Source of the DNA: Centroscyllium fabricii
Taxonomy: Eukaryota
Length of the DNA: 64,000 bases
Assembly: GCA_051313645.2 (NCBI GenBank)
Contig: JBNRSN020000194.1
Span: forward strand, 248,001-312,000
Direction of reading: 5' to 3'
A program made the translations under genes and the position numbers. The notes under the pieces were generated by a model, which saw nothing but the letters and a program-made list of their open reading frames with translations, searched no databases and was not told where the DNA came from. Of this stretch, positions 25,429-51,900 are shown piece by piece; the first letter of the stretch is position 1, and the number at the start of each line of letters is the position of its first letter.

Positions 25429-25707
25429 TGTGGTAACCCATAATGTTATGTATACCACTGTATTCTTGTTGTCAATTATTGGCTGTGTATATGTGTTATA
25501 CAGCCCTGTAACACTGTTGGGAGCCAGGTCAGCCACACCTCTAACTCCTCCCCCAGGTGAGGCCTTTATAGGTGGAGACTGACTGAGGCTCCCTCATTCC
25601 TGCTTAGATGTTCGTTCGGAGGGTAGCTCCTAAGTAAGTGATTAAAAGCCTATAGTTACGGTAACTACTCGTTGAGTCTTTTAATCTGAGATATTGACGA
25701 TACGTCA
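25429..25707 (+). repeat. 5' LTR of the gypsy element
   Basis: TGTGGTAACC...TACGTCA; TTTATA at 25565-25570, ATTAAA at 25641-25646; 10 mismatches versus 30029-30307 by manual count. Confidence 0.96.
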
Positions 25708-25732
25708 ATTTTAATCACTTAAAAGTTTTAAA

Positions 25733-30027: not shown

Positions 30028-30028
30028 A
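30016..30028 (+). promoter_or_regulatory. Polypurine tract of the gypsy element
   Basis: AAGAAGGGGTGAA directly before the TG of the 3' LTR. Confidence 0.85.
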
Positions 30029-30307
30029 TGTGGTAACCCATAATGTTATGTATACCACTGTATTCTTGTTGCCAATATTTGGCTGAGTATATGTGCTACA
30101 CAGCCCTGTAACACTGTCGGGAGCCAGGTCAGCCACACCTCTAACTCCTCCCCCAGGTGAGGCCTTTATAAGTGGAGACTGACTGAGGCTCCCTCATTCC
30201 TGCTTAGATGCTCGTTCGGAGGGTAGCTCCTAAGTAAGTGATTAAAAGCCTATAGTTACGGTAACTACTCGTTGAGTCTTTTAATCCGAGATATTGACGA
30301 TACGTCA
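30029..30307 (+). repeat. 3' LTR of the gypsy element
   Basis: Direct repeat of 25429-25707 at offset 4600, followed by TSD GAGCA. Confidence 0.96.
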
Positions 30308-31696
30308 GAGCACCCGCCCCTGACTGAGAATACTCGGAGCACCCACCCCTGACTTGAATACTCGGAGCTCCCGCCCCTCACTCAGAATACTGAGAGCACC
30401 CGCCCCTGACTGAGAATACTCGGAGCACCCGCCCCCGACTGAGAATACTGAGAGCAGCCGCCCCTGACTAAGAATACTGAGAGCACCCGCCCCTGACTGA
30501 GAATGCTCAGAGCACCCGCCCCTTACTGAGAATAGTGAGAGCACCCGCCCCTGACTGAGAATACTCGGAGTACCCACTCCTGACTGAGAATACTCGGAGT
30601 ACCCACCACTGACTGAGAATACTCAGAGCACTCGCCCCTGACTGAACATACTCGGAGCACCCACCGCTGACTGAGAATACTTGGAGCAGCCACCCCTGAA
30701 TGAAAATACTCGGAGCACCCGCCCCTGACTGAGAATACTCAGAGCACTCGCCCCGACTGAGAATACTCGGAGCACCCACCCCTGATTGAGAATACTCGGA
30801 GCACCCGCCACTGTCTGAGAATTATCGGAGCACCCGCCCCTGACTCAGAATACTCGGAGCACACACCCCCGACTGAGAATACTCGGAGCACTCTCCCCTG
30901 ACTGAGAATACTGGGAGCACACACCCCTTACTGATAATACTCGGATCACACACCCGTAACTGAGAATACTCGGAGCACCCGTCCCTGACTGAGAATACTC
31001 GGAGCACTCGCCCCTGACTGAAAATATTCGGGGCACTCCCCCTGACTCAGAATACTCAGAGCACCCGCCCCTGATTGAGAATACTGAGAGCACCCGACCC
31101 TGACTGAGAATACTTGGAGCACCTACCCCTGACTGAGAATAGTCGGAGCACCTGCCCCTGACTTAGAATACTCGGAGCACCCGCCCCTGACTGAGAATAC
31201 TCAGAGCACCCGCCTCTGACTGAGAATACTCAGAGCACCCGCCCCTGACTGAGAATACTCAGAGCACCCGCCCCTGACTGAGTATACTGAGAGCACCCAC
31301 CCCTGACTGAGAATACACGGAGCACCCGCCCCTGACTGAGAATACTCGGAGCACCCGCACCTGACTTAGAATAATCGGAGCACCCGCCCCTGACTTTGAA
31401 TACTCGGAGCACCCGCCCCTGACTGATACTACTCGGTGCACCCGCCCCTGACTGAGAATACCTGGTGCACCCGGCGTGACTGAGAATACTCGGAGCTCCC
31501 ACCCCTGACTGAGTATACTCAGAGCACCCGCCCCTGACTGAGAATACTCAGAGCTCCCGCCCCTGACTGAGTATACTCGAAGCACCCGCCCCTGACTGAG
31601 AATACTCGGAGCACACACCCCTGACTGAGAATACTGGGAGCACCCGCCCCTGACTGAGAATATTGGGAGCACTCGCCCCTGACTGAGAATACTGAG
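30308..31696. repeat. 29-bp satellite
   Basis: Same monomer, resumes in phase after the TSD. Confidence 0.97.
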
Positions 31697-31996
31697 TGTG
31701 ACCGAAATAATGACCTCGTGGACGAGTAGTTATAAGGGTGAAAGAATACGGCTTTTATTCACTAAATGGTGGACATGCACAAGGTAGTCGACAGTCCCCA
31801 GGAATGGCTGGGGGATGGGAGACGGCCACTTATATACCTCCTCCTGGGAGGGAGGAGTCGAGTGCGGAGCCAGCCTGGGCATGTCCAGGTAATCGTACAA
31901 CAGGTTAAACAGGTTATATACAAACATAAGTATAAGCACAATTACAGAGATACATCATAGGGTGAGTATATACAGTGGAAACAGTGGTTTACCACA
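31697..31996 (-). mobile_element. Solo LTR (300 bp) of a gypsy family related to the element at 25429
   Basis: TG...CA ends; minus strand begins TGTGGTAAACCA (compare TGTGGTAACCCA); minus-strand TATATAA (31830-31836) and AATAAA (31754-31759); flanks CTGAG/CTAAG form a 5-bp TSD with one mismatch. Confidence 0.88.
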
Positions 31997-34900
31997 CTAA
32001 GAGCACCCGCCCCTGACTGAGAATATTCGGAGCACCCGCCCCTGACTTAGAATAATCGGAGCACCCGCCCCTGACTGAGAATAATCGGAGCATCCGCCCC
32101 TGACTGATACTACTCGGAGCTCCCGCCCCTGACTGAGAATTCCTGGGGCACCCGGCGTGACTGTGAATACTCGGAGCTCCGACCCCTGACTGAGTATACT
32201 CAGAGCACCCGCCCCTGTCTGAGAATAGTCGGAGCACCCACCCCTGACTGAGTATACTCGGAGCACCCGCCCCTGACTGACAATACTGAGAGCACACGCA
32301 CCTGACTGAGAATACTGAGAGCACCCGCCCCTGACTGAGAATACTTGGAGCACCCGCACCTGACTGAGAATACTCAGAGCACTCGCCCCTGACTGAGAAT
32401 ACTGAGAGCACCCGCCCCTGACTGAGAATACTCAGAGCACTCGCCTCTGACTGAGAATACTCGGAGCACTCGCCCCTGACTGAGGATACTCAGAGTACCC
32501 GCCCCTTACTCAGAATATTGAGAGCATCCGCCCCTGACTCAGAACACCGAGAGCACCCGCTCCTGACTGAGAATGCTCAGAGCACTCGCCCCTAACTGAG
32601 AATACTTGGAGTACGCACCGCTGACAGAGAATACTTGGAGCACCCACCCCTTAATGAGAATACTCGGAGCACACGCCCCTGACTGAGAATACTCGGAGCT
32701 CCCGCCCCTGACTCAGAATACTGAGAGCACCCGCCCCTGACTGAGAATACTGAGAGCACCCGCCCCTGACTGAGAATATTCAGAGCACCCGCCCATGACT
32801 GAGAATATTCGGCGCACCCACCGCTGACTGAGAATACTCGGAGCACCCACCACTGAATGAGAATACTCGGAGCACCCGCCCCTGACTGAGAATACTCAGA
32901 GCACTCGCCCCGACTGATAATACTTGGAGCACCCACCCCTGACTGAGAATACTCGGAGCACCCGCCACTGACTGAGAATTTTCGGAGCACCCGCCCCTGA
33001 CTCCGAATACTCGGAGCACCCACCCCTGACTGAGAATACTAGGAGCACTCGCCCCTGACTGAGAATACTGGGAGCACACACCCCTTACTGAGAATGCTCA
33101 GATCACACACCCGTGACTGAGAATACTCGGAGCACCCGTCCATGACTGAGAATACTCGGAGCACTCGCCCCTGACAGAGAATACTCGGGGCACTCGCCCC
33201 TGACTCTGAATAATCAGAGCACCCGCCCGTGACTGAGAATACTTGGAGCACACACCCCTGACTGAGAATAGTCGGAGCACTCGCCCCTGACTCAGAATAC
33301 TCAGAGCACCCGCCCATGACTGAGAATACTGAGAGCACCCACCCCTGACTGAGAATACTCAGAGCACCCGCCGCTGACTGAGAATACTCAGAGCACCCGC
33401 CCCTGACTGATTATACTGAGAGCACCCGCCCCTGACTGAGAATATTCGGAGCACCCGCCCCTGACTGAGAATACTCGGAGCACCCGCCCCTGAATTAGAA
33501 TAATCGGAGCACCCATCCCTGACTGATAATACTCGGAGTACATGCCCCTGACTGATACTACTCGGAGCACCCGCCCCTTACTCAGAATGACTTTGGCACC
33601 CGGCGTGACTGAGAATATTCGGAGCTCCCACCCCTGACTGAGTATACTCAGAGCATCCGCCCCTGACTGAGAATACTCGGAGTTCCCGCCACTGACTGAG
33701 TATACTCGGAGCACTCGCCACTGACTGAGAATACTGAGAGCATCCCGCCCCTGAATGAGAATACTTGGAGCACCCGCACCTGACTGAGAATACTCAGAGC
33801 ACTCGCCCCTGACTGAGAATACTGAGAGCACCCGCCCCTGACTGAGAATACTCAGAGCACTCGCCTCTGCCTGAGAATACACGGAGCACTCGCCCCTGAC
33901 TGAGGATACTCGGAGTACCCGCCCCTGACTCAGAATACTGAGAGCACCCGGCCCTGACTCAGAATAATCGGAGCACCCATCCCTGACTGATAATACTCGG
34001 AGTACATGCCCCTGACTGATACTACTCGGAGCACCCGCCCCTTACTCAGAATGACTTTGGCACCCGGCGTGACTGAGAATATTCGGAGCTCCCACCCCTG
34101 ACTGAGTATACTCAGAGCATCCGCCCCTGACTGAGAATACTCGGAGTTCCCGCCACTGACTGAGTATACTCGGAGCACTCGCCACTGACTGAGAATACTG
34201 AGAGCATCCCGCCCCTGAATGAGAATACTTGGAGCACCCGCACCTGACTGAGAATACTCAGAGCACTCGCCCCTGACTGAGAATACTGAGAGCACCCGCC
34301 CCTGACTGAGAATACTCAGAGCACTCGCCTCTGCCTGAGAATACACGGAGCACTCGCCCCTGACTGAGGATACTCGGAGTACCCGCCCCTGACTCAGAAT
34401 ACTGAGAGCACCCGGCCCTGACTCAGAATACTGAGAGCACCGGCCCCTGACTGAGAATACTCAGAGCACTCGCCCAGACTGAGAATACTCGGAGCACCCA
34501 CCCCTGACTGAAAATACTCGGAGCACCCGCCACTGACTGAGAATTAACGGAGCACCCGCCCCTGACTCAGAATGCTCGGAGCACACACCCCTGTCTGAGA
34601 CAACTGGTAGCACACCCCCCTTACTGAGAGTACTCGGATCATACACCCGTGACTGAGAATACTCGGAGCACCCGTCACTGACTGAGAATACTCGGAGCAC
34701 CTGTCCCTGACTGAGAATACTTGGAGCACCCGCCACTGACTGAGAATACTCAGAGCACCCGCCACTGACTGAGAATACTCAGAGCACCCGCCCCTGACTG
34801 AGTATACTGAGAGCACCCGCCCCTGACTGAGAATACTCGGAGCACCAACCCCAACTGAGAATACTCGGAGCACACGCACCTGACTTAAAATAATCGGAGT

Positions 34901-37340
34901 ACCCGCCACTGACTGAGAATACTCGGAGCACCCGCCCCTGACTGATACTACTCGGAGCACCCGCCGCTGACTGAGAATACCTGGGGCACCCGTCGTGACT
35001 GAGAATAGTCGGAGCTCCCACCCATGACTGAGTATACTCGGAGCACCAGCCCCTGACTGAGAATATTCGGAGCTCCCGCCCCTGACTGAGTATACTCGGA
35101 GCACCCGCCCCTGACTGAGAATATTCGGAGCACACACCCCTAACTGAGAATACTTGGAGCACCCGACCCTGATTGAGAATATTCGGAGCACTCGCCCCTG
35201 ACTGAGAATACTGAGAGCACCCGCCCCTGACTGAGGATATTCAGAGCACCCACCCCTGACTGAGAATGCTGAGAGAACCCGCACCTGACTGAGAATACTG
35301 AGAGCACCCGCCCCTGATGGAGAATAGTGAGAGCGCCCGCCCCTGACTGAGAAAACTGTGAGCACCCGAACCTGACTGAGAATACACGGAGCACACGCCA
35401 CTGACTGAGAATACTCCAAGCTCCCGCCCCTGACTCAGAATATGAGAGCACCCGCCCCTGACAAAAAATAATCGGAGTACCCGCCCCTGACTGAGAATTG
35501 TCGGAGCACCCGCCCCTGACTGATACTACTCGGAGAACCCGCCCCTGACTGAGAATACCTGGGGCACCCTGCGTGACTGAGAATACTCGAAGCTCCCACC
35601 CCTGACTGAGTATACTCGGATCACCCGCCCCTGACTGAGAATACTTGGAGCTCCCGCCCCTGACTGAGTATACTCGGAGCACCCGCCCCTGTCTGAGAAT
35701 ATTCGGAGCACACACCCCTGACTGAGAATACTTGGAGCAACCGCCCCTGAATGAGAATATTAAGAGCACTCGCCCCTGACTGAGAATACTGAGAGCACCC
35801 GCCCCAGACTGAGGATACTCAGAGCACCTACCCTTGACTGAGAATGCTGAGAGCACCCGCACCTGACTGAGAATAATGAGAGCACCTGCCCCTGTTTGAG
35901 AATTCTGAGAGCACCCGCCCCGACTGAGAATACTGTGAGCACCCGCCCCTGACTGAGAATATTCGGAGCACACGCCCCTGACTGAGAATATTCCAGGCTC
36001 CCGCCCCTGACTCAGAATACTGAGAGCACCTGCCCCTGACTCAGAAAACTCGGAGCACCCGCCACTGACTGAGAATACTGAGAGCACCCGCCCCTGACTG
36101 AGAATACAGAGAGCTCCCGCCCATGACTGAGAATACTTGGAGCACCCACACCTGACTGAGAATACTCAGAGCACTCGCCCCTGACTGAGAATACTGAGAG
36201 CACCCGCCCCTGACTGAGAATACTCAGAGCACTCGCCTCTGACTGAGAATACTCGGAGCACTCGCCCCTGACAGAGGATACCCGGAGTACCCGCCCCTGA
36301 CTCAGAATATTGAGAGCACCCGCCCCTGACTCAAAATACCAAGAGCACCCGCCCCTGACTGAGAATACTCAGAGCACTCGCCCCTAACTGAGAGTACTCG
36401 GAGCATGCACCACTGAATGAGAATACTTGGAGCACCCACCCCTGAATGAGAATACTCGGAGCACACGCCCCTGACTGAGAATACTCGGAGCTCCCGACCC
36501 TGACTCAGAATACTGAGAGCACCCACCCCTGACTGAGAATACTGAGAGCACTCGCCCCTGACTGAGAATATTCGGAGCACCCGCCCCTGACTGAGAATAC
36601 TCAGAGCACCCGCCCATGACTGAGAATATTCGGAGCACCCACCGCTGACTGAGAATAATTGGAGCACCCACCCCTGAATGAGAATACTCGGAGAACCCGC
36701 CCCTGACTGAGAATACTCAGAGCAATCGTCCCGACTTAGAATACTCGGAGCACACACCCCTTACTGAGAATGCTCGGTTCACACACCCGTGACTGAGAAT
36801 ACTCGGAGCACCCGTCCCTGACTGAGAATACTCGGAGCACTCGCCCCTGACAGAGAATACTCGGGGCACTCGCCACTGACTCAGAATAATCAGAGCACCC
36901 GCCCCTGACTGAGAATACTTGGAGCACCCAACCCTGACTGAGAATAGTCGGGGCACTCGCCCCTGACTCAGAATACTCAGAGCACCCGCCCCTGACTGAG
37001 AATACTGAGAGCACCCGCCCCTGACTGAGAATACTCAGAGCACCCGCCCCTGACTGAGAATACTCAGAGCACCCGCCCCTGACTGAGTATACTGAGAGCA
37101 CCCGCCCCTGACTGAGAATACTCGGATCACCCGCCCCTGACTGAGAATACTCGGATTACCCGCCCCTGACTTAGAATAATCGGAGCACTCGTCCCTGACT
37201 GAGAATACTCGGAGTACATGCCCCTGACTGATACTACTCGCAGCACCCGCCCCTTACTCAGAATGACTTTGGCACCCGGCGTGACTGAGAATATTCGGTG
37301 CTCCCACCCCTGACTGAGTATACTCAGAGCACCCGCCCCT
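31997..37340. repeat. 29-bp satellite, containing a 464-bp tandem duplication (33497-33960 / 33961-34424)
   Basis: Same monomer; rare variants (CACCCATCCC, AGTACATGCC, ATGACTTTGGCACC) recur at offset 464 = 16 x 29. Confidence 0.96.
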
Positions 37341-38770
37341 TGTAAGATTTGAGCTGATGTTTCCCGGATCCAGAACTACTATCAACACTTTTATAACACA
37401 GAACTGCAAGCAACATGCTTTTGTTAAAACCGATAATGTGGGGGCACCCTGGGTACGGAGATGTGGCTCTGTACCAGGGAAAAAGGACTATAGCCAGAGA
37501 CTTTTAAAAGAAAACCAGACACAAGCAGGGGCCACAAAATGGCTTCGCCGACCACGTGATCAGCCTGGCAGAGTGAAACTAAAACAGCCCCCCCCACACA
37601 CATTTTTCTGCAAACTCATGACCAGATAGACTTTGGATATTGGTCATGAATAGCCCACATAACGAGATCGAGTCCCCAGACTGGGAGGCGCCGGTGTCCA
37701 GCAGATGGACAAGGGGCACCGAGGTAACCTCGTCAAGTAAAACAAAAGGCCCATAGAAACCCGAGGGCAGGTAATGGGAAAAAGCTTATGCACAGAGATC
37801 GCTTAACAGAAAAAACGTTTACAGGTGGTCAGGAGATTATCGGTCTGTTAAGCGACCATGAGAACAGAAAAGAACAGATCTAACCTCACTTAAAGACAAA
37901 AGGACACTATAGATCTGGCACGCAGATAAGCGCGAGGTGCGGGGGTATAACGGCCAGGGTTTTAAACTGAAGGCAGAAGGAACAGGCTCGGAGAGGGAGA
38001 GAGAGGTTCGGACAGAGGGGAACTGATGAGCTAGAAAGCAAACAGACTGACGAACTGGAGAACGAGAGCTCAAGCAAAGAGCTGATGGCAGTTGATAGCC
38101 AGAAAGAGTAACAGTGTCGTTTTAAAGTGAGAGCTGGAGAGAAGCAGCAGAGGTCTGAACCAGAAAGAAAGGTGCACTCGATTTAGAGATCAGCTAGAAA
38201 GTGCTTGCCTGCATCAGAAGTCGGTGCCAGGAAGCCAGGAAGGCGGAAGAGAGAGAGAGAGAGAGAGCCCCTTCCACAGCTACCTAATCGAAGGACGAAG
38301 GAGGTGCAACACAACGAACCCCGAACCCCCCCAGTAAACATAGCCCATGGTGAGTATGGTGTTCCGCTTCTGCACGTCTGGACATAGGATAGTGTAGGAA
38401 GTGGAGGGTGGGTGTCGTGGAAGCATATTGGGGTGTAGCTGTTTAATGTTTGCCCAATTTTACGTTGTATCGTACCCTCTCCATCCTGTTTTTAATTGAT
38501 TAACGTTTGGTTCTACTGTTGTAATAGTTGAATGTGTAATAAAGGACTGTGTTTTAAACATCACATCTCTGGTCTCTTGGAACTCTGTTCTGGCAGGAAT
38601 TACCTACACTATCACAACTCCTGTACATAAGCCCAGTGTCGAGAACCGTAGGGGGGAGCGTTTCAGACCGCTCACAGGGACCCGGTGTGCGAGGCCTGGT
38701 CGCGGGACCAAGGCAAGGCGCAGGGACTCTAGGTCGAGCCTGGAGAAGGCCGGCTGCCAAACCCCTTACA
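37341..38770 (+). repeat. 5' LTR (1430 bp)
   Basis: Terminal inverted TGTAAG/CTTACA; TATAA 37946-37950; (GA)n run near 38248-38267; AATAAA 38538-38543. Confidence 0.97.
38347..38355 (+). promoter_or_regulatory. Candidate start codon plus splice donor, ATG|GTGAGT, in the LTR
   Basis: Near-consensus U1 donor directly after an ATG; in phase with a candidate acceptor at 41714. Confidence 0.65.
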
Positions 38771-38775
38771 GATTT

Positions 38776-38793
38776 TGGCGACCCAGATGGGAC
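38776..38793 (+). promoter_or_regulatory. Primer-binding site, tRNA-Arg (CCG-type)
   Basis: TGGCGACCCAGATGGGAC, 5 nt after the LTR, is the reverse complement of GTCCCATCTGGGTCGCCA, which I recall as the 3' end of a vertebrate tRNA-Arg(CCG); not checked against a database. Confidence 0.8.
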
Positions 38794-40541
38794 ACTGGCA
38801 ACAGGATGATAGTGTGCCAGAAACGGTTGTAAGAACTAGGGATATGATGGATGAACGCATGGCCGACTATGTGTTCAGCAAGGTCAATCTGACCAAGTCA
38901 TGGATGTGTGAGTTGCTGGAAGACAAGCGCCCACTGGATGCAGCGATCCGGTGGACGTCCAGCAAAGCACACAAGAAAGTGGTAGAAAAGGCCGTCTGGC
39001 TGTCGTGCTACAAGAAGCAGGTCCAGCTCCTGGACCGTGTAGTGGCAGCGCAGGCAGCCCAGATAGGGAACCTCCGTGAGGAGGTGAGGGAAAAGGCTGA
39101 GGGAGGGCTCCAGTTGATCGAGGCCCTGGACTCCTCGAACAAGGAGCGCCGGGTTTTGGTCAACCGATATGAGGCCAAGGTTGAACTGTTGGGGTGCCAG
39201 ATCACTGACGCTAAGCTCAGTGAGGGCGCAATTAGGCAGCGGTGTGCCGGCCTAGACCAACAGTTGGAGGCCACAGGGGAGACTCTCCGGGGGGTTAAAG
39301 CAGCCTATAAAATGGCTTTGGAGGATCGGTCCGAAGGGGCCGATCACGGGGCTTGTAGGGAGGAGATCGAAAGCCTGCGCAGCGCCTTAGATAGGGCTAG
39401 TGGGTTGGTCTGCCTTATGAACCCCGCAGCGGGAACATCACTGGCAGCGGCAAGGGTTCCAGCAAGGGGTCCGTGCATGCCCGTGGTGGCTTCGGCCCCC
39501 ACGTATCACGATCCCCCCAGCTATGAGGCTTCCTGGGAGAAGGGGGGCGCTGGGGAGAGTGAGCAGGGGGGGGGACCGGCCAGGGAACCGGCGCAGGCAC
39601 CGATGTGTCCATTGCTGGAGACCAGGCGGGGACCCGACGCAGCGAACGGGGATCCCGGGCCTGTCCAAAGTCAGATTATAGTGCCCCACAGCGCCCAGCA
39701 GTTGAGGTCCATGGTCGGGCAAGTCAAGAAGCTGTCCGAATCGGGGGACCCTTCACTGCATTTTCAGGAGGTTGAGCAGACCGCCGCAATCAATGGTTGC
39801 GACGAAGGGGAGCAGGCGAGGATGCTATTGTTCTCCCTGGACTACTCACTCCTTCAGTGCCTCAGTGATGAGAGCAAACGGGGTACCAGAACCTACGAAC
39901 AGTTAAGGGAAGAGGTTCTGGAGGTTTTAGGCACGGACGATGAGGGTCCATTTGCCCGCTTGGGGAAAACTCTCCAGATGGAGGGAGAACCTCCGAGGGT
40001 TTTTGCGGCGAGACTGTGGCCGGTCTACCAACGTAGCTGCCCGCAGGTCCCGAACCGGGATGCCCTGGTCGGGAATGTTAGGGCGCAGTGGCTTCGGTGC
40101 TTGGTAACGAACAGCCTAGCAGCTGTCCGGGAGCAGGCGAAAGCCTGGTTCGACCCAACGAACACCACGGAGGACGAGGTTTTGGACCGCCTCACCGTGG
40201 GGTATCGGAACACCCGGAGCACCGCCACCAAGTCGGTCAAGGGGAAGGTGCACGTAGCGGAGGCCGTTACATCGGCCCCGAAGGAATGGCGTCAGGAGGG
40301 CAACCCTGCCGCACAGTCTAAGTGTTTTAGGTGCGGTAAGGTGGGTCACTGGAGGAAAGACTGCAGGGTTTTCCCCAAGGAGGTTAGGGCCAACCCCGCT
40401 CCGCGCGCCGAGATAGCCGTTAAGCCCGAAACGTTGGAGTCAATGATCGAGGTGATGCGGTCCCTCATGGAAGCACAAGGGAAGGTTGCAGTCGCCACCG
40501 GCTCCCCGGGTGCGGGGGGGACACCGGACATTCCCCAGTGA
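38787..40541 (+). CDS. gag: Gag-like polyprotein (N-terminal coiled coil, PPxY late motif, capsid-like helical region, CCHC knuckle)
   Basis: Intact ORF of about 584 aa from the first ATG (inside the PBS; alternative ATG at 38844); PPSY at 39513-39524; CFRCGKVGHWRKDC at 40323-40364. Confidence 0.88.
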   Translation: MGHWQQDDSVPETVVRTRDMMDERMADYVFSKVNLTKSWMCELLEDKRPLDAAIRWTSSKAHKKVVEKAVWLSCYKKQVQLLDRVVAAQAAQIGNLREEVREKAEGGLQLIEALDSSNKERRVLVNRYEAKVELLGCQITDAKLSEGAIRQRCAGLDQQLEATGETLRGVKAAYKMALEDRSEGADHGACREEIESLRSALDRASGLVCLMNPAAGTSLAAARVPARGPCMPVVASAPTYHDPPSYEASWEKGGAGESEQGGGPAREPAQAPMCPLLETRRGPDAANGDPGPVQSQIIVPHSAQQLRSMVGQVKKLSESGDPSLHFQEVEQTAAINGCDEGEQARMLLFSLDYSLLQCLSDESKRGTRTYEQLREEVLEVLGTDDEGPFARLGKTLQMEGEPPRVFAARLWPVYQRSCPQVPNRDALVGNVRAQWLRCLVTNSLAAVREQAKAWFDPTNTTEDEVLDRLTVGYRNTRSTATKSVKGKVHVAEAVTSAPKEWRQEGNPAAQSKCFRCGKVGHWRKDCRVFPKEVRANPAPRAEIAVKPETLESMIEVMRSLMEAQGKVAVATGSPGAGGTPDIPQ

Positions 40542-41495
40542 CTGGAGCCCGCGCAGCCTGTCAACCCGGTTCCCTCGGAAAGACGTGCAGAGGAAGAGAC
40601 CTCCGGTAATTTGGAGGACTTCCTGGGGTGCCAGGTTGCAGGAGCTCAGGTCGTGGAACGGGCTTTAAGGAAAGAGAATGACAGGCTAGCGGCAAAAGCT
40701 AGCAGTTTAGAGGAAGAACTCAAGGTTTTTAAAATGCTTCACAGCAGGTGCAAGCTGTTTAGCCTGGAGGCAAAAACCCAGGCAGCTGAAGTGAAAAGGG
40801 AGTTTAAAACCTCAAAGGCTGCAACAGGTCAGCGGCAGCAGGTAAAACAGGGGTCAGTCACAGGGGCAAGCCCTGTGGATAGAGAATCACAGCCAAAATT
40901 GTGGAAGGTCACGCAGGTGGGTAAAGCTGCCTGCGTGAGGGGAAAGGAGGAAGACGTTTGCCAGCAATGGAGGGCGTCCCAGTTTGGATGGGACTCAGAC
41001 GAAGACGAGCCTGATCAGCTCGGTCTGGGGCTGAATCTCATGACGGAGGAGTGGGAGTCGGAGGGGGATGACGAGAGCATCCTCGACTCAAGCACCAGGG
41101 AGGCGGGGGTAGCGGGCGGAGACTCACCACCTGTCACAGACAGGGTGAGGTCGGAAGCCGCGGATATACCCAGCCCCAAGGGGGTAGTGCTGGATGAGGA
41201 AGGGCCGGGGTCGGCAGCTGCGGGGGTCACCCGAGCTGCGGCACGGCGGGAACCTGTCCTCAACCGGGCTGCCCAGGGGGCCGTGCCTGAGGTGACTCTC
41301 CGTAGGTCCAGCAGGATACCTCAACTGAGGAAGCTTTGGCCGGAATTGTACGGGACCCCAGCGACAGGCAGTTTGTCGGGTTGGAGAAAGGAAGATGGTC
41401 ACTGGCAGGCAGCCACAGGCTGCGACACTTCAAAGGATGCAGGCAGCGCGGCCAAGCCACAGGCAGCGGCGCGCTGCAGCCTGGATCAGGATTAG
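40542..41495 (+). CDS. ORF2, unknown 317-aa protein in frame with gag behind a single UGA (occupies the pol position)
   Basis: Same frame as gag with no stop from 40542 to the TAG at 41493-41495; heptad-rich segment, acidic tract (WDSDEDEPD, EEWESEGDDES), LRRSSR motif; no pol catalytic motifs. Confidence 0.6.
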   Translation: MEPAQPVNPVPSERRAEEETSGNLEDFLGCQVAGAQVVERALRKENDRLAAKASSLEEELKVFKMLHSRCKLFSLEAKTQAAEVKREFKTSKAATGQRQQVKQGSVTGASPVDRESQPKLWKVTQVGKAACVRGKEEDVCQQWRASQFGWDSDEDEPDQLGLGLNLMTEEWESEGDDESILDSSTREAGVAGGDSPPVTDRVRSEAADIPSPKGVVLDEEGPGSAAAGVTRAAARREPVLNRAAQGAVPEVTLRRSSRIPQLRKLWPELYGTPATGSLSGWRKEDGHWQAATGCDTSKDAGSAAKPQAAARCSLDQD

Positions 41496-41714
41496 CCTGG
41501 CCGCCTTGGAAGGGCGGCGTTGTATGATAGGCTAGGTAGTTTTAAGAAGTTTAGTGGTAAGTTAAGTTATATTTTTACTGGGTTAGGTAAAAGGGGCAAT
41601 GTGTCCAGCGTGCAGATGCGGGGTACGGGCTGGGGTCATCAGACCCAAGCATGGGTCTTTAACACAGCCAAGCGCTCTTGGAGAGGCTGGCTATACCAAC
41701 GTTATCTGTTTCAG

Positions 41715-44087
41715 GAACCAAACGAGGCACTAAGATGGGGAATCATCTTCCTGGCGATCGGATGCGGGTGGGCCTATCGGGGCCGCACCCAGGACATCGT
41801 GGTATACGGATGTTCGGGAAGCACCGCGCCTACCGCGACCGTTGGGACGGGACAACGGACAACCGAAGGAGCTGCCGTTTTCTTCCACCAGGGGCGATGG
41901 CCAGGGTGGCTGGGATCAAACGCTTCTGAGTATCTCGGCACCCCAGGATTTTTCTTCAGGGACACTGAGTTATTGTGCCCAAAGGTGAAGATCATCGCCC
42001 AGAAGACCAGCGTCACGGCCGGCAAGAGGATTTGCCTGAGGTGCACCGGAAAGGTCGACACCCGGTTGAGGTGGTGGCTACGTAAAACCAGCCGGACCAT
42101 GGCCAACTCAACCGTGAATTGGGAAAAGCTGGACAACAACACTCACAGGACAGTCTTTGGGACTAATGAAAGTTTGAGTGTCTGTTGGGACAAGTGGTGG
42201 GAGCCTGATGAGGGAATTTATGTGTGTAGGTGGGGTTCCAGGTATTTGTGCCCCACAGGGAACAGCATATTTTTCCACCAGCAGTGGCAAGATGGTGGTA
42301 AGGGGATGAGGTGGGATGTTAGCTCACAAGCCTGTGGGGTCCCATTTTCCCCGAGCCCAGTTAACGCCACTGAACTCGTCACCCGACCACGCACAACACC
42401 TCCCACACCGAGGCGGGCAGCAGCACAGGAGGGTGGGTGCCCCAAGACTACACGGGGGCCCGAGAATGGCCTGGTATTGATACCAACAGATCAGGTATTA
42501 TACCAGGGGGTGCACTACACGGTGGCCTCGGTGATTTTAAACCTCACCGAGGTAAGGTTGCCGGAGTGGTGCCCCAAGGAGACCGAAAGGTTATATCAGG
42601 TGCTGCTGGCAAATATGTACAGGCAGTTTTACGAACTTGACCTGGCCAGTGTAGACAAGGCAAGCCTGTACCGCCAAGGGCCAGAGACATGGGGCCAAAC
42701 GGGGAGACAAAAGAGGGGTGTAGTGAATGATGTGTTCACGGGCTTTAACACCGGAGCCTCTGTGGTCAACGCTCTCGACACCATGGAGCTGCAGACCCAG
42801 ATAAACGGTTTAAAGTCGCAGTTGAAGGACATCCTCACGGAGGAGAACAATGTCGTCGGGTCGGAGCTCCATGAGGACCAGGCGATGACACTGCACCTGC
42901 GCGAGATAATCGCGTAATTAGAAAGACACGCGAGCACGGTGAACGCTCTGATCAAGGAAGATCGGAACGCTTCTGACCAGGCTGCGCAGAACGAGGTGTG
43001 CGTTCTGTACGGGGCGTGGTTGCTGGGCGAGGGCCGCAGCAACCTTGAGGACCTGAAGCAAGGGTTGGTCCCGTCCTGGATCAGTAACAAACACCTCCAA
43101 GCACTGCAGCCTTTTCAGAACGCGCTTACACCGTGTCAGCTCAGGTTGGCGTCAGAGGCGTACCCTGTTCCCATTGACTGTGGGCGTTCTAATTACACGG
43201 TCATGGGAGTGGTGGTACGGATGCCGGTGTTGGGCAAGACGGCAAGGCCCGCACCGGTATACAGGGTGGAGAACATCGGAGTCATTCAGGGGGGAGTACA
43301 CGTTCGCTACGCAGAGGTCCCACCGTATGTTGTCCGCTGGGAGCAGTTGATGACAGGTACAGACCTCTCGGGGTGCCGGAGCAGGGGAGCACACATAATA
43401 TTGTGTCCCCAGCACTTGAATGTCTTGCGGGTACAGCAGTGTGGGTTCAGGGCTGTTGGCGCGAAGCCTATGAATTGCACTATGGAGGCGATGGCACAGG
43501 ACCATGTCCCTCCACAGGTGGCATACATAGGGGGTGGTACTTACTGTATTACCACTGCAGCGCAACACTACCGACACGGGCAGCATGGCCTATGTCCGGT
43601 GAGTGACAGCAGCTTCTGTTTTAAACCACAGGCAGAGGTTCAAGTGGCACAGCTGCGAATCGTCCCCATACCTGAACCCTCCACGGTTCACATCAGTGTA
43701 AAGGAGAATTTCACCAACCTGCAGCACTTTGTGGCGCATTTTGGGTATGCCATACCCCCTCTCCCCGAACACCTCACAACACTTTTTAAAGCAGTTGCCG
43801 TATCGCAAAAGCATTTTTACACCCTGGAACAGAAGACAGATAAGATTGGGGCAGACATATTGGAGATAGTGGTTCCCCCGTGGTGGGACCTGTTCAATAA
43901 TATAGAAGTCCCATCTTGGGTTAGAATTGCATCACACGTGTTAGTGGTGGTGCAAGCTTTTATAGTGTTCTATTTAATATGTGGACAGTGCAGAGGGAGA
44001 CAGCGGCTTCGCAGCCGGATAGGCAGAGGGGAATGGAGGGACCGGTACGTCAGGGCGGACGAACCGGAGGCAGAGACAAGCTGCTGA
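41715..44087 (+). pseudogene. env: Envelope glycoprotein: signal peptide, Ig-like domain, Pro/Thr linker, furin site, long F1-like fusion subunit, TM; one in-frame TAA
   Basis: Track ORFs 41520-42917 and 42939-44087 share one frame, split by TAA at 42915-42917; hydrophobic WGIIFLAIGCGWAY; RQKR at 42705-42716 then GVVNDVFTGFNTGASVVNAL and heptads; C-terminal VLVVVQAFIVFYLIC; several N-x-S/T sequons. Confidence 0.87.
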
Positions 44088-44496
44088 CATGGGGAAGAAG
44101 TCACCTCCAATTTTACCTCTCTGTGAGAGAGTCTCATTGAAAACACTGTATATATATTTAAGTTTAAGTTTTGAAGGTATTTTCTTTTTGTGGTGTATGT
44201 ATTGATCTTTGTGCCCCAATAAAACGATCACCGACAGGAGGACGGTTGGCGGACGGCATCAGCCGAGGAAAAGGGTGTAAGTTTTGAAAGACGGGCACAA
44301 ATCTGGGGAATGTTTATGTGTATATAGTGACCCGGGAAGGCAGTAATGTATAGGTCGGCCTGAAAGATGGGGACTGTACGTTAAGTACTTGGGCGCTAGT
44401 TTAGGTAAAATAGTGGGGGTCTGGACGTGGACAACCGGGAAAACATAGCTCAACCGTAATTTAATTTGATTGCGACACATTGGGGTGTGTGGAATC

Positions 44497-44509
44497 AAAC
44501 AGGAGGGAC
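44497..44509 (+). promoter_or_regulatory. Polypurine tract of the ERV-like element
   Basis: AAACAGGAGGGAC directly before the TG of the 3' LTR. Confidence 0.8.
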
Positions 44510-45936
44510 TGTAAGATTTGAGCTGATGTTTCCCGGATCCAGAACTACTATCAACACTTTTATAACACAGAACTGCAAGCAACATGCTTTTGTTAAAACC
44601 GATAATGTGGGGGCACCCTGGGTACGGAGATGTGGCTCTGTACCAGGGAAAAAGGACTATAGCCAGAGACTTTTAAAAGAAAACCAGACGCAAGCAGGGG
44701 CCACAAAATGGCTTCGCCGACCACGTGATCAGCCTGGCAGAGTGAAACTAAAACAGCCCCCACACACATTTTTCTGCAAACTCATGACCAGATAGACTTT
44801 GGATATTGGTCATGAATAGCCCACATAACGAGATCGAGTCCCCAGACTGGGAGGCGCCGGTGTCCAGCAGATGGACAAGGGGCACCGAGGTAACCTCGTC
44901 AAGTAAAACAAAAGGCCCATAGAAACCCGAGGGCAGGTAATGGGAAAAAGCTTATGCACAGAGATCGCTTAACAGAAAAAACGTTTACAGGTGGTCAGGA
45001 GATTATCGGTCTGTTAAGCGACCATGAGAACAGAAAAGAACAGATCTAACCTCACTTAAAGACAAAAGGACACTATAGATCTGGCACGCAGATAAGCGCG
45101 AGGTGCGGGGGTATAACGGCCAGGGTTTTAAACTGAAGGCAGAAGGAACAGGCTCGGAGAGGGAGAGAGAGGTTCGGACAGAGGGGAACTGATGAGCTAG
45201 AAAGCAAACAGACTGACGAACTGGAGAACGAGAGCTCAAGCAAAGAGCTGATGGCAGTTGATAGCCAGAAAGAGTAACAGTGTCGTTTTAAAGTGAGAGC
45301 TGGAGAGAAGCAGCAGAGGTCTGAACCAGAAAGAAAGGTGCACTCGATTTAGAGATCAGCTAGAAAGTGCTTGCCTGCATCAGAAGTCGGTGCCAGGAAG
45401 CCAGGAAGGCGGAAGAGAGAGAGAGAGAGAGAGCCCCTTCCACAGCTACCTAATCGAAGGACGAAGGAGGTGCAACACAACGAACCCCGAACCCCCCCAG
45501 TAAACATAGCCCATGGTGAGTATGGTGTTCCGCTTCTGCACGTCTGGACATAGGATAGTGTAGGAAGTGGAGGGTGGGTGTCGTGGAAGCATATTGGGGT
45601 GTAGCTGTTTAATGTTTGCCCAATTTTACGTTGTATCGTACCCTCTCCATCCTGTTTTTAATTGATTAACGTTTGGTTCTACTGTTGTAATAGTTGAATG
45701 TGTAATAAAGGACTGTGTTTTAAACATCACATCTCTGGTCTCTTGGAACTCTGTTCTGGCAGGAATTACCTACACTATCACAACTCCTGTACATAAGCCC
45801 AGTGTCGAGAACCGTAGGGGGGAGCGTTTCGGACCGCTCACAGGGACCCGGTGTGCGAGGCCTGGTCGCGGGACCAAGGCAAGGCGCAGGGACTCTAGGT
45901 CGAGCCTGGAGAAGGCCGGCTGCCAAACCCCTTACA
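44510..45936 (+). repeat. 3' LTR (1427 bp)
   Basis: Direct repeat of 37341-38770; I found 2 substitutions and a 3-bp shorter C run. Confidence 0.97.
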
Positions 45937-48900
45937 CCCTGACTGAGAATACTCAGAGCTCCCGCCACTGACTGAGTATACTCGGAGCACTCGCCCCTGA
46001 CTGAGAATACTTGGAGCACCCGCCCCTGACTAAGAATATTCGGAGCTCTCGCCCCTGACTGTTGATACAGAGAGCACCCGACCCTGACTTAGGATACTCA
46101 GAGCACCCACCCCTGACTGAGAATACTGAGAGCACCCGCACCTGACTGAGCATACTGAGAGCCCACGCCCCTGACTGAGAATACTGAGAGCACTCGCCCC
46201 TGACTGAGAACACTGAGAGCACCCACCCCTGACTGAGAATAGTGTGAGCACCCGCCCCTGACTGAAAATACTCTGAGCACACGCCCCTGACTGAGAATAC
46301 TTAGAACACCAGCCACTGACTGACAATACTGAGAGCACCCGCCCCGACTGAGAATACTCGGAGCACCCACCCCTGACTGAGAATACTCGGAGCACCCGCC
46401 ACTGATTGAGAATTTTCGGAGCACCCGCCCCTGACTCAGAATACTCGGAGCACACAGCCCTGACTGAGATTACTCGGAGCACTCACCCCTGACTGAGAAT
46501 ACTGGGAGCACACACCCCTTACTGAGATTGCTCGGATCACACACCCGTGACTGAGAATACTCGGAGCACCCATCCCTGACTGAGAATACTCGGGGCACTC
46601 GCCCCTGACTCAGAATAATCAGAGCACTCGCCCCTGACTGAGAACACTCGGAGCACCCGCCCCTGACTGAGAATACTGAGAGCACCAGTCCCTGACTGAG
46701 AATTCTGAGAGCACCCGCCCCTGACAGAGAATACCCGGAGCACCCGCCCCTGACTAAGAATAGTGAGAGCACCCGCCCCTGACTGAGAATACTCGGACCA
46801 CCCTCCCCTGACTGAGAATGGTTGGAGCACCAGCCCCTGACTGAGAATATACGGAGTACCCACCACTGACTGAGAATTCTCAGAGCACCCGCCCCTGACT
46901 GAAAATACACGGAGTACCCGCCCCTGACTGAGAATACTTGGAGTACCTGCCCCTGACTGAGTATACTCGGAGCACTCGCCCCTGACTGAGAATACTCGGA
47001 GCACACACCCCTGACGGAGAATACTTGGAGCACCTGCCCCTGACTGAGAATATTCGGAGCACTCGCCCCTGACTGTTGATACGGAGAGCACCCGACCCTG
47101 ACTTAGGATATTCAGAGCACCCACCCCTGACTGAGAATACTGAGAGCACCCGCACCTGACTGAGAATACTCGGAGTACCCGCCCCTGATTGAGAATACTC
47201 GGACCACCCGCCCCTGACTGAGAATACACGGAGTACCCACCACTGACTGAGAATTCTCAGAGCACCCGCCCCTGACTGAAAATACACGGAGTACCCGCCC
47301 CTGACTGAGAATACTTGGAGTACCTGCCCCTGACTGAGAATACTCGGAGCACTCGCCCCTGACTGAGAATACTCAATGCACCCGCACCTGACTGAGAATA
47401 CTCGGAGCACCTGCTGCTGAATGAGAATACTCGGAGCACCCGCGCCTTACTGAGCATATTCAAAGCACCCACCTCTGACGGAGAATACTGTGAGTACCCG
47501 CCTCTGACTGAGAATACTCGGGGCACCCGCCCCTGACTGAGATTACTCGGAGCACCCGCCCCTGACTGAGAATACTCAATGCACCTGCCACTGACTTAGG
47601 ATACTGAGAGCACCCGCCCCTGACTGAGAATACTTGGAGTACCCGCCCCTGACTAAGGATACTAGGAGCACCCGCCCCTGACTGAGAATACTCGGAGCAC
47701 CCGCCCCTGAATGAGATTACTCGGAGCACCCGCCCCTGACTGAGAATACTCGGAGCACCCGCCACCGACTGAGAATATTGAGAGCACCCGCCCCTGACTG
47801 AGATTACTCGGAGCACCCGTCCCTGACTGAGAATACTGAGAGCACACACCCCTGACTGAGAATACTCAGAGCACCCGCCCCTGACTGAGAATACTCAGAG
47901 CACCACCCCCTGACTGAGAATATTTGGAGTACCAGCCCCTAACTGAGAATACTCGGAGCACCCACCCCTGACTGAGAATATTCAGAGCACCCACACCTGA
48001 CTGAGAATACTCGGAGAACCCACCCCTGACTGAGAATACTCAGAGCACTCGCCCCTGACTGCGAATACTTGGTGTACCCGCCCCTGACTCAGAATACTTG
48101 GAGTACCCGCCCCTGACTGAGTATACTCAGGGCACCTGTCACTGACTGAAAATACTAGGAGTACCCGCCCCTGACTGAGAATACTCAGAGCACCTGACCA
48201 TGACTGAGAATACTAGGAGCACCCGCCCCTGATTGAGAATTCTGAGAGCACCCGCCCATGACTGAGAATACTGTGAGCACCCGCCCCTGACTGAGAATAC
48301 TCGGAGCACATGCCCCTGACTGAGAATACGCCAAGCTCCCGCCCCTGACTCAGAATACTGAGAGCTTCCGCCCCTGACTGAGAATACTGAGAGCACCCGC
48401 CCCTGAATGAGAATAGTTGGAGCACCCGCACCTGACTGAGAATACTCAGAGCACTCTCCCCTGACTGAGAATACTGAGATCACCCGCCCCTGACTGAGAA
48501 TATTCGGAGCACCCACCGCTGACTGAGAATACTTGGAGCACCTACCCCTGAATGAGAATACTCAGAGCACCCGCCCCTGACTGAGACTACTCAGAGCACT
48601 CGCCCCGACTGAGAATACTCGGAGCACCCAACCCTGACTGAGAATACTCGGAGCCCTCGCTCCTGACTGAGAATACTGGGAGCACACACACCTTACTGAG
48701 AATGCTCGGATCACACACCCGTGACTGAGCATACTCGGAGCACCCGTCCCTGACTGAGAATACTCGGAATACTCGCCCCTGACAGAGAATACTCGGGGCA
48801 CTCGCCCCTGACTCAGAATAATCAGAGCACCCGCTCCTGACTGAGAATACTTGGAGCACCCACCCCTGACTGAGAATAGTCGGGGCACTCGCCCCTGACT

Positions 48901-51900
48901 CAGAATATTCGGAGCACCCGTCCCTGACTGTGAATACTGAGAGCACCCGCCCCTGACTGAGAATACTCAGAGCACCCGCCCCTGACTGAGAATACTGAGA
49001 GCACCAGCCCCTGACTGAGAATACTCGGAGCACCCGTCCCTGACTGAGAATACTCAGAGCTCCCGCCACTGACTGAGTATACTCGGAGCACTCGCCCCTG
49101 ACTGAGAATACTTGGAGCACACACCCCTGACGGAGAATACTTGGAGCACCCGCCCCTGACTAAGAATATTCGGAGCTCTCGCCCCTGACTGTTGATACGG
49201 AGAGCACCCGACCCTAACTTAGGATACTCAGAGCACCCACCCCTGACTGAGAATACTGAGAGCACCCGCACCTGACTGAGCATACTGAGAGCCCACGCCC
49301 CTGACTGAGAATACTGAGAGCACTCGCCCCTGACTGAGAACACTGAGAGCACCCACCCCTGACTGAGAATAGTGTGAGCACCCGCCCCTGACTGAAAATA
49401 CTCAGAGCACACGCCCCTGACTGAGAATACTTAGAACACCAGCCACTGACTGACAATACTGAGAGCACCCGCCCCTGACTGAGAATACTCGGAGCACCCA
49501 CCCCTGACTGAGAATACTCGGAGCACCCGCCACTGATTGAGAATTTTCGGAGCACCCGCCCCTGACTCAGAATACTCGGAGCACACACCCCTGACTGAGA
49601 TTACTCGGAGCACTCACCCCTGACTGAGAATACTGGGAGCACACACCCCTTACTGAGATTGCTCGGATCACACACCCGTGACTGAGAATACTCGGAGCAC
49701 CCGTCCCTGACTGAGAATACTCGGGGCACTCGCCCCTGACTCAGAATAATCAGAGCACTCGCCCCTGACTGAGAACACTGAGAGCACCCACCCCTGACTG
49801 AGAATAGTGTGAGCACCCGCCCCTGACTGAAAATACTCTGAGCACACGCCCCTGACTGAGAATACTTAGAACACCAGCCACTGACTGACAATACTGAGAG
49901 CACCCGCCCCGACTGAGAATACTCGGAGCACCCACCCCTGACTGAGAATACTCGGAGCACCCGCCACTGATTGAGAATTTTCGGAGCACCCGCCCCTGAC
50001 TCAGAATACTCGGAGCACACAGCCCTGACTGAGATTACTCGGAGCACTCACCCCTGACTGAGAATACTGGGAGCACACACCCCTTACTGAGATTGCTCGG
50101 ATCACACACCCGTGACTGAGAATACTCGGAGCACCCATCCCTGACTGAGAATACTCGGGGCACTCGCCCCTGACTCAGAATAATCAGAGCACTCGCCCCT
50201 GACTGAGAACACTCGGAGCACCCGCCCCTGACTGAGAATACTGAGAGCACCAGTCCCTGACTGAGAATTCTGAGAGCACCCGCCCCTGACAGAGAATACC
50301 CGGAGCACCCGCCCCTGACTAAGAATAGTGAGAGCACCCGCCCCTGACTGAGAATACTCGGACCACCCTCCCCTGACTGAGAATGGTTGGAGCACCAGCC
50401 CCTGACTGAGAATATACGGAGTACCCACCACTGACTGAGAATTCTCAGAGCACCCGCCCCTGACTGAAAATACACGGAGTACCCGCCCCTGACTGAGAAT
50501 ACTTGGAGTACCTGCCCCTGACTGAGTATACTCGGAGCACTCGCCCCTGACTGAGAATACTCGGAGCACACACCCCTGACGGAGAATACTTGGAGCACCT
50601 GCCCCTGACTGAGAATATTCGGAGCACTCGCCCCTGACTGTTGATACGGAGAGCACCCGACCCTGACTTAGGATACTCAGAGCACCCACCCCTGACTGAG
50701 AATACTGAGAGCACCCGCACCTGACTGAGAATACTCGGAGTACCCGCCCCTGATTGAGAATACTCGGACCACCCGCCCCTGACTGAGAATACACGGAGTA
50801 CCCACCACTGACTGAGAATTCTCAGAGCACCCGCCCCTGACTGAAAATACACGGAGTACCCGCCCCTGACTGAGAATACTTGGAGTACCTGCCCCTGACT
50901 GAGAATACTCGGAGCACTCGCCCCTGACTGAGAATACTCAATGCACCCGCACCTGACTGAGAATACTCGGAGCACCTGCTGCTGAATGAGAATACTCGGA
51001 GCACCCGCGCCTTACTGAGCATATTCAAAGCACCCACCTCTGACGGAGAATACTGTGAGTACCCGCCTCTGACTGAGAATACTCGGGGCACCCGCCCCTG
51101 ACTGAGATTACTCGGAGCACCCGCCCCTGACTGAGAATACTCAATGCACCTGCCACTGACTTAGGATACTGAGAGCACCCGCCCCTGACTGAGAATACTT
51201 GGAGTACCCGCCCCTGACTAAGGATACTAGGAGCACCCGCCCCTGACTGATAATACTCGGAGCACCCGCCCCTGAATGAGATTACTCGGAGCACCCGCCC
51301 CTGACTGAGAATACTCGGAGCACCCGCCACCGACTGAGAATATTGAGAGCACCCGCCCCTGACTGAGATTACTCGGAGCACCCGTCCCTGACTGAGAATA
51401 CTGAGAGCACACACCCCTGACTGAGAATACTCAGAGCACCCGCCCCTGACTGAGAATACTCAGAGCACCACCCCCCTGACTGAGAATATTTGGAGTACCA
51501 GCCCCTAACTGAGAATACTCGGAGCACCCACCCCTGACTGAGAATATTCAGAGCACCCACACCTGACTGAGAATACTCGGAGAACCCACCCCTGACTGAG
51601 AATACTCAGAGCACTCGCCCCTGACTGCGAATACTTGGTGTACCCGCCCCTGACTCAGAATACTTGGAGTACCCGCCCCTGACTGAGTATACTCAGGGCA
51701 CCTGTCACTGACTGAAAATACTAGGAGTACCCGCCCCTGACTGAGAATACTCAGAGCACCTGACCATGACTGAGAATACTAGGAGCACCCGCCCCTGATT
51801 GAGAATTCTGAGAGCACCCGCCCATGACTGAGAATACTGTGAGCACCCGCCCCTGACTGAGAATACTCGGAGCACATGCCCCTGACTGAGAATACGCCAA

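Follow-up and report, generated by a model that had tools for sequence, protein, structure and literature searches.

Defective endogenous retroviruses (ERVs) tend to be regarded as products of decay that do not last long, and the gene that they usually lose is env. The provirus at positions 37341-45936 of a 64,000-nucleotide stretch of Centroscyllium fabricii DNA (GenBank assembly GCA_051313645.2, contig JBNRSN020000194.1, positions 248,001 to 312,000 of the forward strand; this whole stretch is called the window below) has instead kept gag and env and lacks pol. How could an element without enzymes of its own have moved recently, and what occupies the place of pol? We propose that it is a young non-autonomous ERV with whole gag and env, in which an old cassette of ~375 nt replaces pol. 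It would be served by the enzymes of a near-identical helper, with which it would also be co-packaged and recombine. Taken as a whole, we hold this reading to be likely.

A young and dispersed family without pol

The locus carries the marks of recent insertion that an earlier note, made from the letters of the stretch alone, had listed. Its two long terminal repeats (LTRs) differ by two substitutions and one 3-nt indel and end in TG...CA, the target-site duplication (TSD) reads CCCT on both sides, the primer binding site (PBS) is perfectly complementary to the 3' end of a host tRNA-Arg(CCG) gene plus CCA, and a polypurine tract (PPT) is in place. gag, a second open reading frame (ORF2) and env all lie in one reading frame; gag and ORF2 are open and env has a single stop, which is private to the window copy (1 of 41 copies). 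The claimed absence of protease (PR), reverse transcriptase (RT), RNase H and integrase (IN) also stood. A motif scan found neither the RT motif YxDD nor the IN motif HHCC in any frame of the element, the two matches to D[TS]G[AS] fall inside env but in other frames, and tblastn with PR, RT and IN of gypsy elements and of the helper described below gave no match in the element.

Searching the 7.2-Gb genome with Gag yielded 77 matches at 98-100%, and the cassette yielded at least 150 copies, all at 96-100%. We read 80 copies, comprising a first sample of 40 chosen by Gag score and a second of 40 more chosen by the cassette. All 40 of the first sample are colinear with the window and without pol; a later insertion interrupts env in two of them, and a third is truncated at its 3' end. 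Two loci of this sample (L043 and L049) share flanks and represent one insertion, so that L049 was left out of later counts. A 4-bp TSD, nearly always different, flanks 31 of the 37 two-LTR elements (window included), and the median LTR divergence is 0.14%. In the second sample 29 of 40 copies are fully colinear, 20 of 27 have a 4-bp TSD and the median LTR divergence is 0.28%. Across both samples, 51 of 64 two-LTR copies have the duplication. No copy among the 80 contains a family-type PR or RT within the element; one abuts a helper-type copy on the opposite strand. All 80 retain the Pol tail and the region before env. The pol-less layout thus recurs with different TSDs in a dispersed, recently mobile family, as had been surmised, and is not a one-off deletion.

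At a substitution rate of 2.2e-10 per site per year, which PMC4422223 assumes for sharks, a divergence of 0.14% would translate into ~3 million years, and at a mammalian rate into ~0.3. Frames are open in 38 (gag), 33 (ORF2) and 19 (env) of 41 copies in the first sample, and in 16, 34 and 20 of 40 in the second.

A near-identical helper with pol

The helper was reached through a distant Gag (P0006), which led to older pol-bearing relatives; their RT and IN in turn brought up many young copies whose pol frames are long and open. At 15 of the 16 loci read of the closest family, pol is present between window-like flanks, and the 16th is interrupted after gag. The helper is 96-97% identical to the window over 38771-40558 and 98.5-99% over 40847-44509, and its Pol runs in the order PR, RT, tether, RNase H, IN and SH3-like domain. 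LTR ends, PPT and Arg PBS are common to both families, which supplies the pol-bearing relative that the earlier note had said to look for. The 14 nt of the PPT are identical in all two-LTR copies read (pol-less, n=37; helper, n=14), and 10 of the 14 two-LTR helper copies have a 4-bp TSD. A degenerate junction pattern has 424 exact matches in the genome. Among the first 100 matches listed, 56 are of cassette type, 40 of helper type and 4 of other types; older families account for at least 2 of the 56. We consider it very likely that this is a non-autonomous family whose helper has been identified.

Across 11 segments outside the cassette, not one fixed difference separates the 40 pol-less from the 15 helper copies compared, whereas the first 72 nt of the cassette hold 24. 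When all 80 pol-less copies are used, 35 polymorphisms occur in both pools, 25 of them non-CpG. In the gag tree, monophyly of the helper is rejected (approximately unbiased test, p-AU 0.017). The pol-less and helper forms thus make up a single recombining pool, within which the cassette is what sets them apart. The idea of a non-autonomous, satellite-like retrovirus therefore survives as a pol-less family with a helper, but not as a separate virus, since everything outside the cassette belongs to one pool.

The cassette that replaces pol

In the pol-less form, ~3.7 kb of enzymes is replaced in frame by the ~375-nt cassette. Identity to the helper is 97-100% up to 40470, which lies 24 codons ahead of the gag stop; there it falls to ~63%, and at ~40844 it recovers. 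The cassette thereby comprises the last 24 gag codons, the UGA-CUG junction, ~6 codons of the Pol start, which are also the first codons of ORF2, and ~95 codons that are absent from the helper. UGA-C ends gag in every junction displayed. ORF2 residues 103-317 are 94-95% identical in amino acids to the helper's post-integrase Pol tail, which starts just behind the integrase SH3-like domain. The statement that no pol fragment is visible was accordingly wrong for two thirds of ORF2. The earlier note had named a pol remnant in ORF2 as an outcome that would refute its reading; this outcome holds for the tail and the ~6 start codons but fails for the ~95 codons between them.

In an hhalign comparison, Gag residues 113-161 align with the peptide that the cassette encodes (probability 85, score 37), and none of 60 heptad-block shuffles scored as high (maximum 33). 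The peptide therefore probably derives from an old duplicate of the Gag coiled coil. A search for homologues of ORF2 residues 1-110 found none among 190 candidates.

Two side observations concern these segments. In three older-lineage loci (L083, L084 and L088) the Gag coiled-coil repeat is internally expanded at the motif that the cassette resembles, which suggests that this Gag segment duplicates readily. In one pol-less copy (L222, ~3948-4232 in its own orientation), a 95-aa integrase piece lies at the cassette 3' junction (237 nt inserted, C-terminus, 84% amino acid identity to the helper); it is likely a recombinant with another lineage.

Age and probable movement of the cassette

Cassette homologues at 47-61% amino acid identity stand behind gag in older elements, in at least 150 more copies. 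Where the flanks of these older carriers are readable, the Pol tail or env lies within ~1.5 kb, which leaves no space for pol. We built a tree of the Gag capsid region with 42 rows, from which 3 duplicate loci were dropped and loci without a 170-aa single-frame match omitted. Cassette carriers need 4 label changes on this tree, and a single carrier clade is rejected (p-AU 5e-88). The window groups with its helper, and two older groups each include a pol-bearing sister. Between the window and the older cassettes, 4 of 17 four-fold sites differ in the cassette as opposed to 29 of 46 in gag (p=0.009). In a lenient nucleotide alignment, in which only the cassette figure is informative, the cassette median is 71% against a background near 55%. 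Over its last 23 residues, Gag agrees with three skate proteins at 19 positions and with the helper at 13, whereas the 250 residues upstream of them are 99% identical to the helper and 78% to skate. The nearest named Gag relative is from the skate Rhinoraja longicauda (74%); the Gag homologue search returned 2 proteins only, neither a longer, fused form. The analysis did not turn up the immediate donor of the young cassette.

As judged from these comparisons, the cassette of the young virus is much older than its proviruses, and we think it fairly likely that it has moved between virus lineages.

Selection on the cassette, ORF2, gag and env

Among 36 older cassettes, chosen by protein score and with CpG sites kept, variants present in at least 3 copies are 25 synonymous and 15 nonsynonymous, as against 32 and 76 for singletons (p=5e-4). 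The Gag capsid of 29 of these loci shows a similar pattern (66/38 shared, 63/122 singletons). These counts indicate that the cassette is under purifying selection in the older lineages, where it also has a conserved Met in good start context.

For env, with CpG removed, the 80 copies yield 20 synonymous and 24 nonsynonymous shared variants as against 61 and 191 singletons (p=0.006). Variants common to pol-less copies only are 18 and 17, compared with the same singletons (p=0.002), the helpers read being 15. This pattern shows, at the level of codon changes, purifying selection on env within the pol-less pool, and selection on env suggests that spread involves entry.

Two further signals were discarded. 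Positive selection on the Pol tail is not claimed, its singletons carrying the same nonsynonymous skew as the shared variants, and an early gag dN/dS estimate (omega 0.28-0.43) was set aside, the copies having been chosen by Gag score.

A proposed mechanism and its alternatives

How might the two forms be maintained together? In the mechanism that we propose, particles containing helper Gag-Pol would take up pol-less RNA, and a tRNA-Arg primer would start its reverse transcription. Where both genomes share a particle, template switching would keep gag, env and LTRs alike, and would occasionally transfer the cassette to a new helper lineage. Readthrough of the UGA would produce Gag-ORF2 (Gag, a second coiled coil and the Pol tail) in place of the helper's Gag-Pol. 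The element's own Env would matter for spread, favouring cell-to-cell reinfection over purely intracellular copying.

Several points weigh against this proposal. Helper packaging, template switching, UGA readthrough and the part of Env in spread are inferred. The young ORF2 shows no constraint (shared variants 0 synonymous and 6 nonsynonymous in the cassette, 2 and 26 in the tail), and the young family has TTG where older cassettes have their conserved Met; that the cassette peptide still acts in the young family is doubtful. The tail-plus-env tree does not reject monophyly of the helper (p 0.64). In the second, unbiased sample, Gag has an omega of 0.6-0.8, which is not significant, and env of this sample alone, with CpG kept, has no significant signal in shared variants and an omega of 0.77-0.96. 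The env variants counted as exclusive to pol-less copies may also be carried by unsampled helpers, as 15 of roughly 170 or more were read, and choosing older cassettes by protein score may have biased that set toward conservation. The dN/dS check that had been suggested for the three frames thus bore out selection on env but gave a weak result for Gag and none for the young ORF2.

The pol-less form could alternatively be a plain defective passenger. An inert piece of an old deleted provirus would have been swapped into an active virus once or a few times, its proteins would not be needed, and its frames would be open only because the copies are young and refreshed from the helper. The unconstrained young ORF2, the neutral singletons and the lack of fixed differences from the helper all agree with this, as does the fact that just 16 of 40 unbiased copies have an open gag and 20 of 40 an open env. 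Segment swaps of this type are, moreover, known for ERVK C/D, MusD/ETn and recKoRV (PMC10924933). Protein-level constraint on the older cassettes and on env of the pol-less pool is difficult to reconcile with a passenger. So is the recurrence of an in-frame cassette on at least 4 Gag branches, given that recKoRVs are reported with 17 different breakpoints and disrupted ORFs (PMC6112702). We regard the passenger as unlikely.

If the cassette is indeed a copy of the Gag coiled coil, its peptide could pair with that of Gag and bias assembly or packaging toward pol-less genomes, or damp the helper. Ty1 p22 offers an analogy for such a Gag-derived regulator. The alignment to Gag above all heptad-block shuffles, the well-placed Met and purifying selection in older copies, and the excess of cassette-type over helper-type junctions (56 to 40 in the first 100 listed) would all suit such a role. 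The young family, without an ATG and without constraint, speaks against it, and we rate a regulator no better than the passenger.

A role at the RNA level is, in our judgement, still less probable. The cassette would make the genome shorter, yet an open frame, the readthrough signal and any env splice signals would be preserved, so that the RNA stays stable and packageable and the peptide does little. UGA-C and the first Pol codons are kept, the frame is open to the Pol stop, the Pol tail and pre-env region persist in every copy read, and the omega of the young ORF2 is ~1 or above. The synonymous excess among shared variants of the older cassettes, however, equals that of the Gag capsid, which is a signature of selection on protein.

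A one-off deletion or an assembly artefact, for which one could cite the position in a 29-bp satellite array and the Pol sequence within ORF2, can be dismissed: the cassette is common to 80 dispersed copies, the satellite occurs in the flanks of none of the 36 other two-LTR copies, and public contigs span both the cassette (a contig of an independent-looking run, which may be from the source sample, covers it whole with 2 differences) and its 3' junction (a contig of a second organism code, at ~94%).

Returning to a pol-less family served by a helper, we can carry the proposal one step further. The cassette itself might be the real replicator, a selfish module of ~375 nt that hops by recombination among cartilaginous-fish retroviral lineages and is hosted at present by a snakehead retrovirus (SnRV)-like virus with an F-like, immunoglobulin (Ig)-bearing Env. 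We offer this as a speculation that is possible though not favoured. If it is true, each hop would turn a competent virus into a pol-less partner that still produces particles and Env.

Env and the retroviral affinity of the family

Env comprises a hydrophobic signal-like stretch near aa 38, a Pro/Thr-rich linker, a putatively F-like ectodomain and a transmembrane segment at aa ~767-794. A furin site, RQKR, is encoded at 42705, and CX6CC and CWLC are absent. The match to Fusion_gly (PF00523) has E values of 0.012-0.047 and lies below the cut-off, a sequence comparison with the PDB gave no match, and by eye Env resembles that of Loki-Xtr as given in the PMC7947760 supplement. The N-terminal region is conserved in older lineages (50-71%) and could contain an Ig-like domain. 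A model of this region (pLDDT 51) has mostly Ig-fold neighbours, none of them significant (best Z 6.5, Foldseek E 0.045), and an Atlas score of 0.88-0.89, which is a lead only. The ectodomain model (pLDDT 38) is too poor for its fold search to be informative. Gamma-type Env has an IgV-like receptor-binding domain and a proline-rich region (bioRxiv 10.1101/2024.03.17.585361), and the Ig-like region and Pro/Thr linker found here may parallel that layout.

Comparing the helper RT with four entries of Dataset S2 of PMC7947760, we counted by eye, over 140 columns and without a tree, 70 identities to SnRV, 56 to walleye dermal sarcoma virus, 48 to murine leukaemia virus and 47 to Loki-Sau. The helper RT is without the motifs common to the 24 Loki RTs of that dataset, its PDB ranking places gammaretroviral and foamy RT above Ty3, and the RNase H motifs look SnRV-like by eye. 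The Pfam succession of RT_RNaseH (tether) and RNase_H is common to all retroviruses and not diagnostic; by eye, the motifs of the tether and of the IN C-terminus are similar to those of Loki-Xtr. On these alignments the helper RT looks snakehead-retrovirus-like rather than lokiretrovirus-like. The affinity to lokiretroviruses that had been suspected therefore narrows to Env, where the loki/F-like resemblance holds by eye; RT and RNase H look closer to SnRV, likewise by eye.

Features of the locus and its surroundings

The features of the element are collected in Table 1. Gag has an N-terminal coiled coil (a heptad region, by sequence), a late-domain-like motif PPSY (39513) and one CCHC zinc knuckle at aa 493-508 (Pfam zf-CCHC).

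Table 1. Features of the pol-less provirus, in window positions
Feature	Positions	Strand	Remarks
Whole element	37341-45936	+	inserted within a 29-bp satellite array
Left TSD, CCCT	37337..37340	+	inside the 29-bp satellite array
5' LTR, 1430 nt	37341..38770	+	AATAAA at 38538
ATG with adjoining GTGAGT (candidate splice donor)	38347..38355	+	within the LTR; splice-donor-like
PBS, tRNA-Arg(CCG) type	38776..38793	+	family also has a tRNA-Arg(TCG) type
gag, 565 aa	38844..40541	+	from the first of two Met codons; UGA stop
Pol-replacement cassette	40470..40843	+	
ORF2, 317 codons	40542..41495	+	in frame behind the gag stop; cassette peptide and Pol tail
Acidic non-enzymatic C-terminal Pol tail	40847..41495	+	
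env, 823 codons	41616..44087	+	one in-frame stop at 42915
Possible Ig-like domain, Env N-terminus	41970..42240	+	C...W...DEGIYVC pattern; lead only
Internal purine run, then LTR-start-like TGTAAG	44260..44295	+	234 nt ahead of the 3' LTR; the helper has it too
PPT, 14 nt	44496..44509	+	purine-rich; directly before the 3' LTR
3' LTR, 1427 nt	44510..45936	+	
Right TSD, CCCT	45937..45940	+	

Of 80 pol-less loci, 76 have the ATG-GTGAGT of the LTR, as do all 16 helper loci. No splice joint from this candidate donor to ORF2 or env occurs among public contigs, which is not evidence either way, and a look-up of public records listed no RNA data set that carries the family. The two primer types segregate, each making up about half of the pol-less copies, and the helpers read comprise 14 with the TCG-type and 1 with the CCG-type primer. 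Each PBS pattern matches a single host tRNA gene exactly.

The 29-bp satellite has unit matches of 78-83% at 22000-25428, 30300-37340 and 45937-50000, and composition suggests that it makes up most of the window. Targeting of this satellite by the family was considered and rejected on the flanks of the other two-LTR copies. A separate Ty3/gypsy element, also inserted in the satellite, lies at 25430-30300. It has gag-like frames, followed by PR-RT-RH-IN with several stops, and a 45-bp repeat in the gag-pol region; its relatives are frequent among the fetched loci.

Elsewhere in the genome, tandem arrays of proviruses occur in helper-type form (~11-kb spacing) and in pol-less form (~7.2-kb spacing); the array loci are G000:C1044:224694756-224722505 and G000:C1:587235594-587244536. 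Three other pol-bearing relatives (L133-L138; Gag ~59% identical, Pol frames of 1482-1561 codons) are without all or much of env, so that this genome houses derivatives of one clade that lost env alongside others that lost pol.

Implications

A pol-replacing module that has outlived several helper lineages and was constrained as protein would behave as a persistent retroviral satellite. With hundreds of young copies of both forms, and older pairs besides, parasite-of-parasite dynamics become testable from sequence alone, as does the cis-preference of Gag and Env. The pol-less half would escape RT-based surveys of ERVs altogether. If the helper is indeed SnRV-like and has an F-type Env, F-type fusogens would not be limited to lokiretroviruses. 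An SnRV-like virus with a paramyxovirus-F-like, Ig-bearing Env would then make the separate origins that have been proposed for the Env of canonical retroviruses and of lokiretroviruses less distinct.

Comparison with known systems

The overall arrangement is reminiscent of cattle ERVK[2-1-LTR] C/D, MusD/ETn and koala retrovirus (KoRV)/recKoRV, in which competent and defective forms have common flanks and recombine (PMC10924933, PMC6112702). These systems, too, have a central segment exchanged for a piece of an older retroelement and many young defective copies. However, D-type elements and recKoRVs are described as having no intact ORFs, whereas whole gag and env are kept here. The swapped piece is also short, in frame and formerly protein-constrained, and it recurs on Gag lineages that are ~45-50% identical.

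Pol-less Athila elements of Arabidopsis likewise carry gag and env between LTRs and lack pol; their ORFs are under purifying selection, and they recombine with autonomous families (PMC2410132). They differ in being plant Ty3/gypsy elements with an env-like gene of unproven role, and the accessible text of that article describes no conserved in-frame cassette at the pol position. The zebrafish BHIKHARI elements Bik-1 and Bik-2 are recently active and non-autonomous, with a coiled-coil Gag and without pol (bioRxiv 10.1101/2024.03.25.586437). Unlike the present family, they have Gag only and no env, no helper was reported for them in the reference genome, and they were assigned to lokiretroviruses.

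Among the four RTs counted by eye, that of SnRV is closest to the helper. SnRV has an Arg PBS, as the present family does; its Pol contains an additional domain, and its env begins upstream of gag. Its Gag has a coiled coil and one zinc finger (PMC2717909), as does the Gag described here, and its gag and pol lie in one frame split by a stop (PMC13517186), the arrangement that we find, with predicted readthrough. That stop is UAG in SnRV and UGA in other fish retroviruses (PMC13517186), and it is UGA here. The SnRV clade has relatives in the elephant shark, namely CmiERV lineage I (PMC4422223, PMC12193657). In contrast to SnRV, we see no accessory 3' ORF, and the cytoplasmic tail of Env is ~30 aa long as against 136 in SnRV. 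The literature searched contained no statement on an F-like nature of Env in the SnRV clade.

Lokiretroviruses have in common with this family a dual RNase H, a coiled-coil Gag and an Env with RxKR and a weak Fusion_gly match (PMC7947760). The Env found here has ~230 extra N-terminal residues relative to the lokiretroviral Env, and lokiretroviruses were reported in 0 of 6 chondrichthyan genomes (PMC7947760).

Our literature search, which left repeat databases and most subscription journals outside its range, turned up no earlier account of the family, nor of any short, constrained cassette that retroviral lineages have used repeatedly. Pairs of competent and defective elements with a swapped segment, pol-less elements with gag and env, and gag-only fish elements were known already. 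What is new is a short, in-frame and once-constrained cassette that replaces pol and recurs across retroviral lineages.

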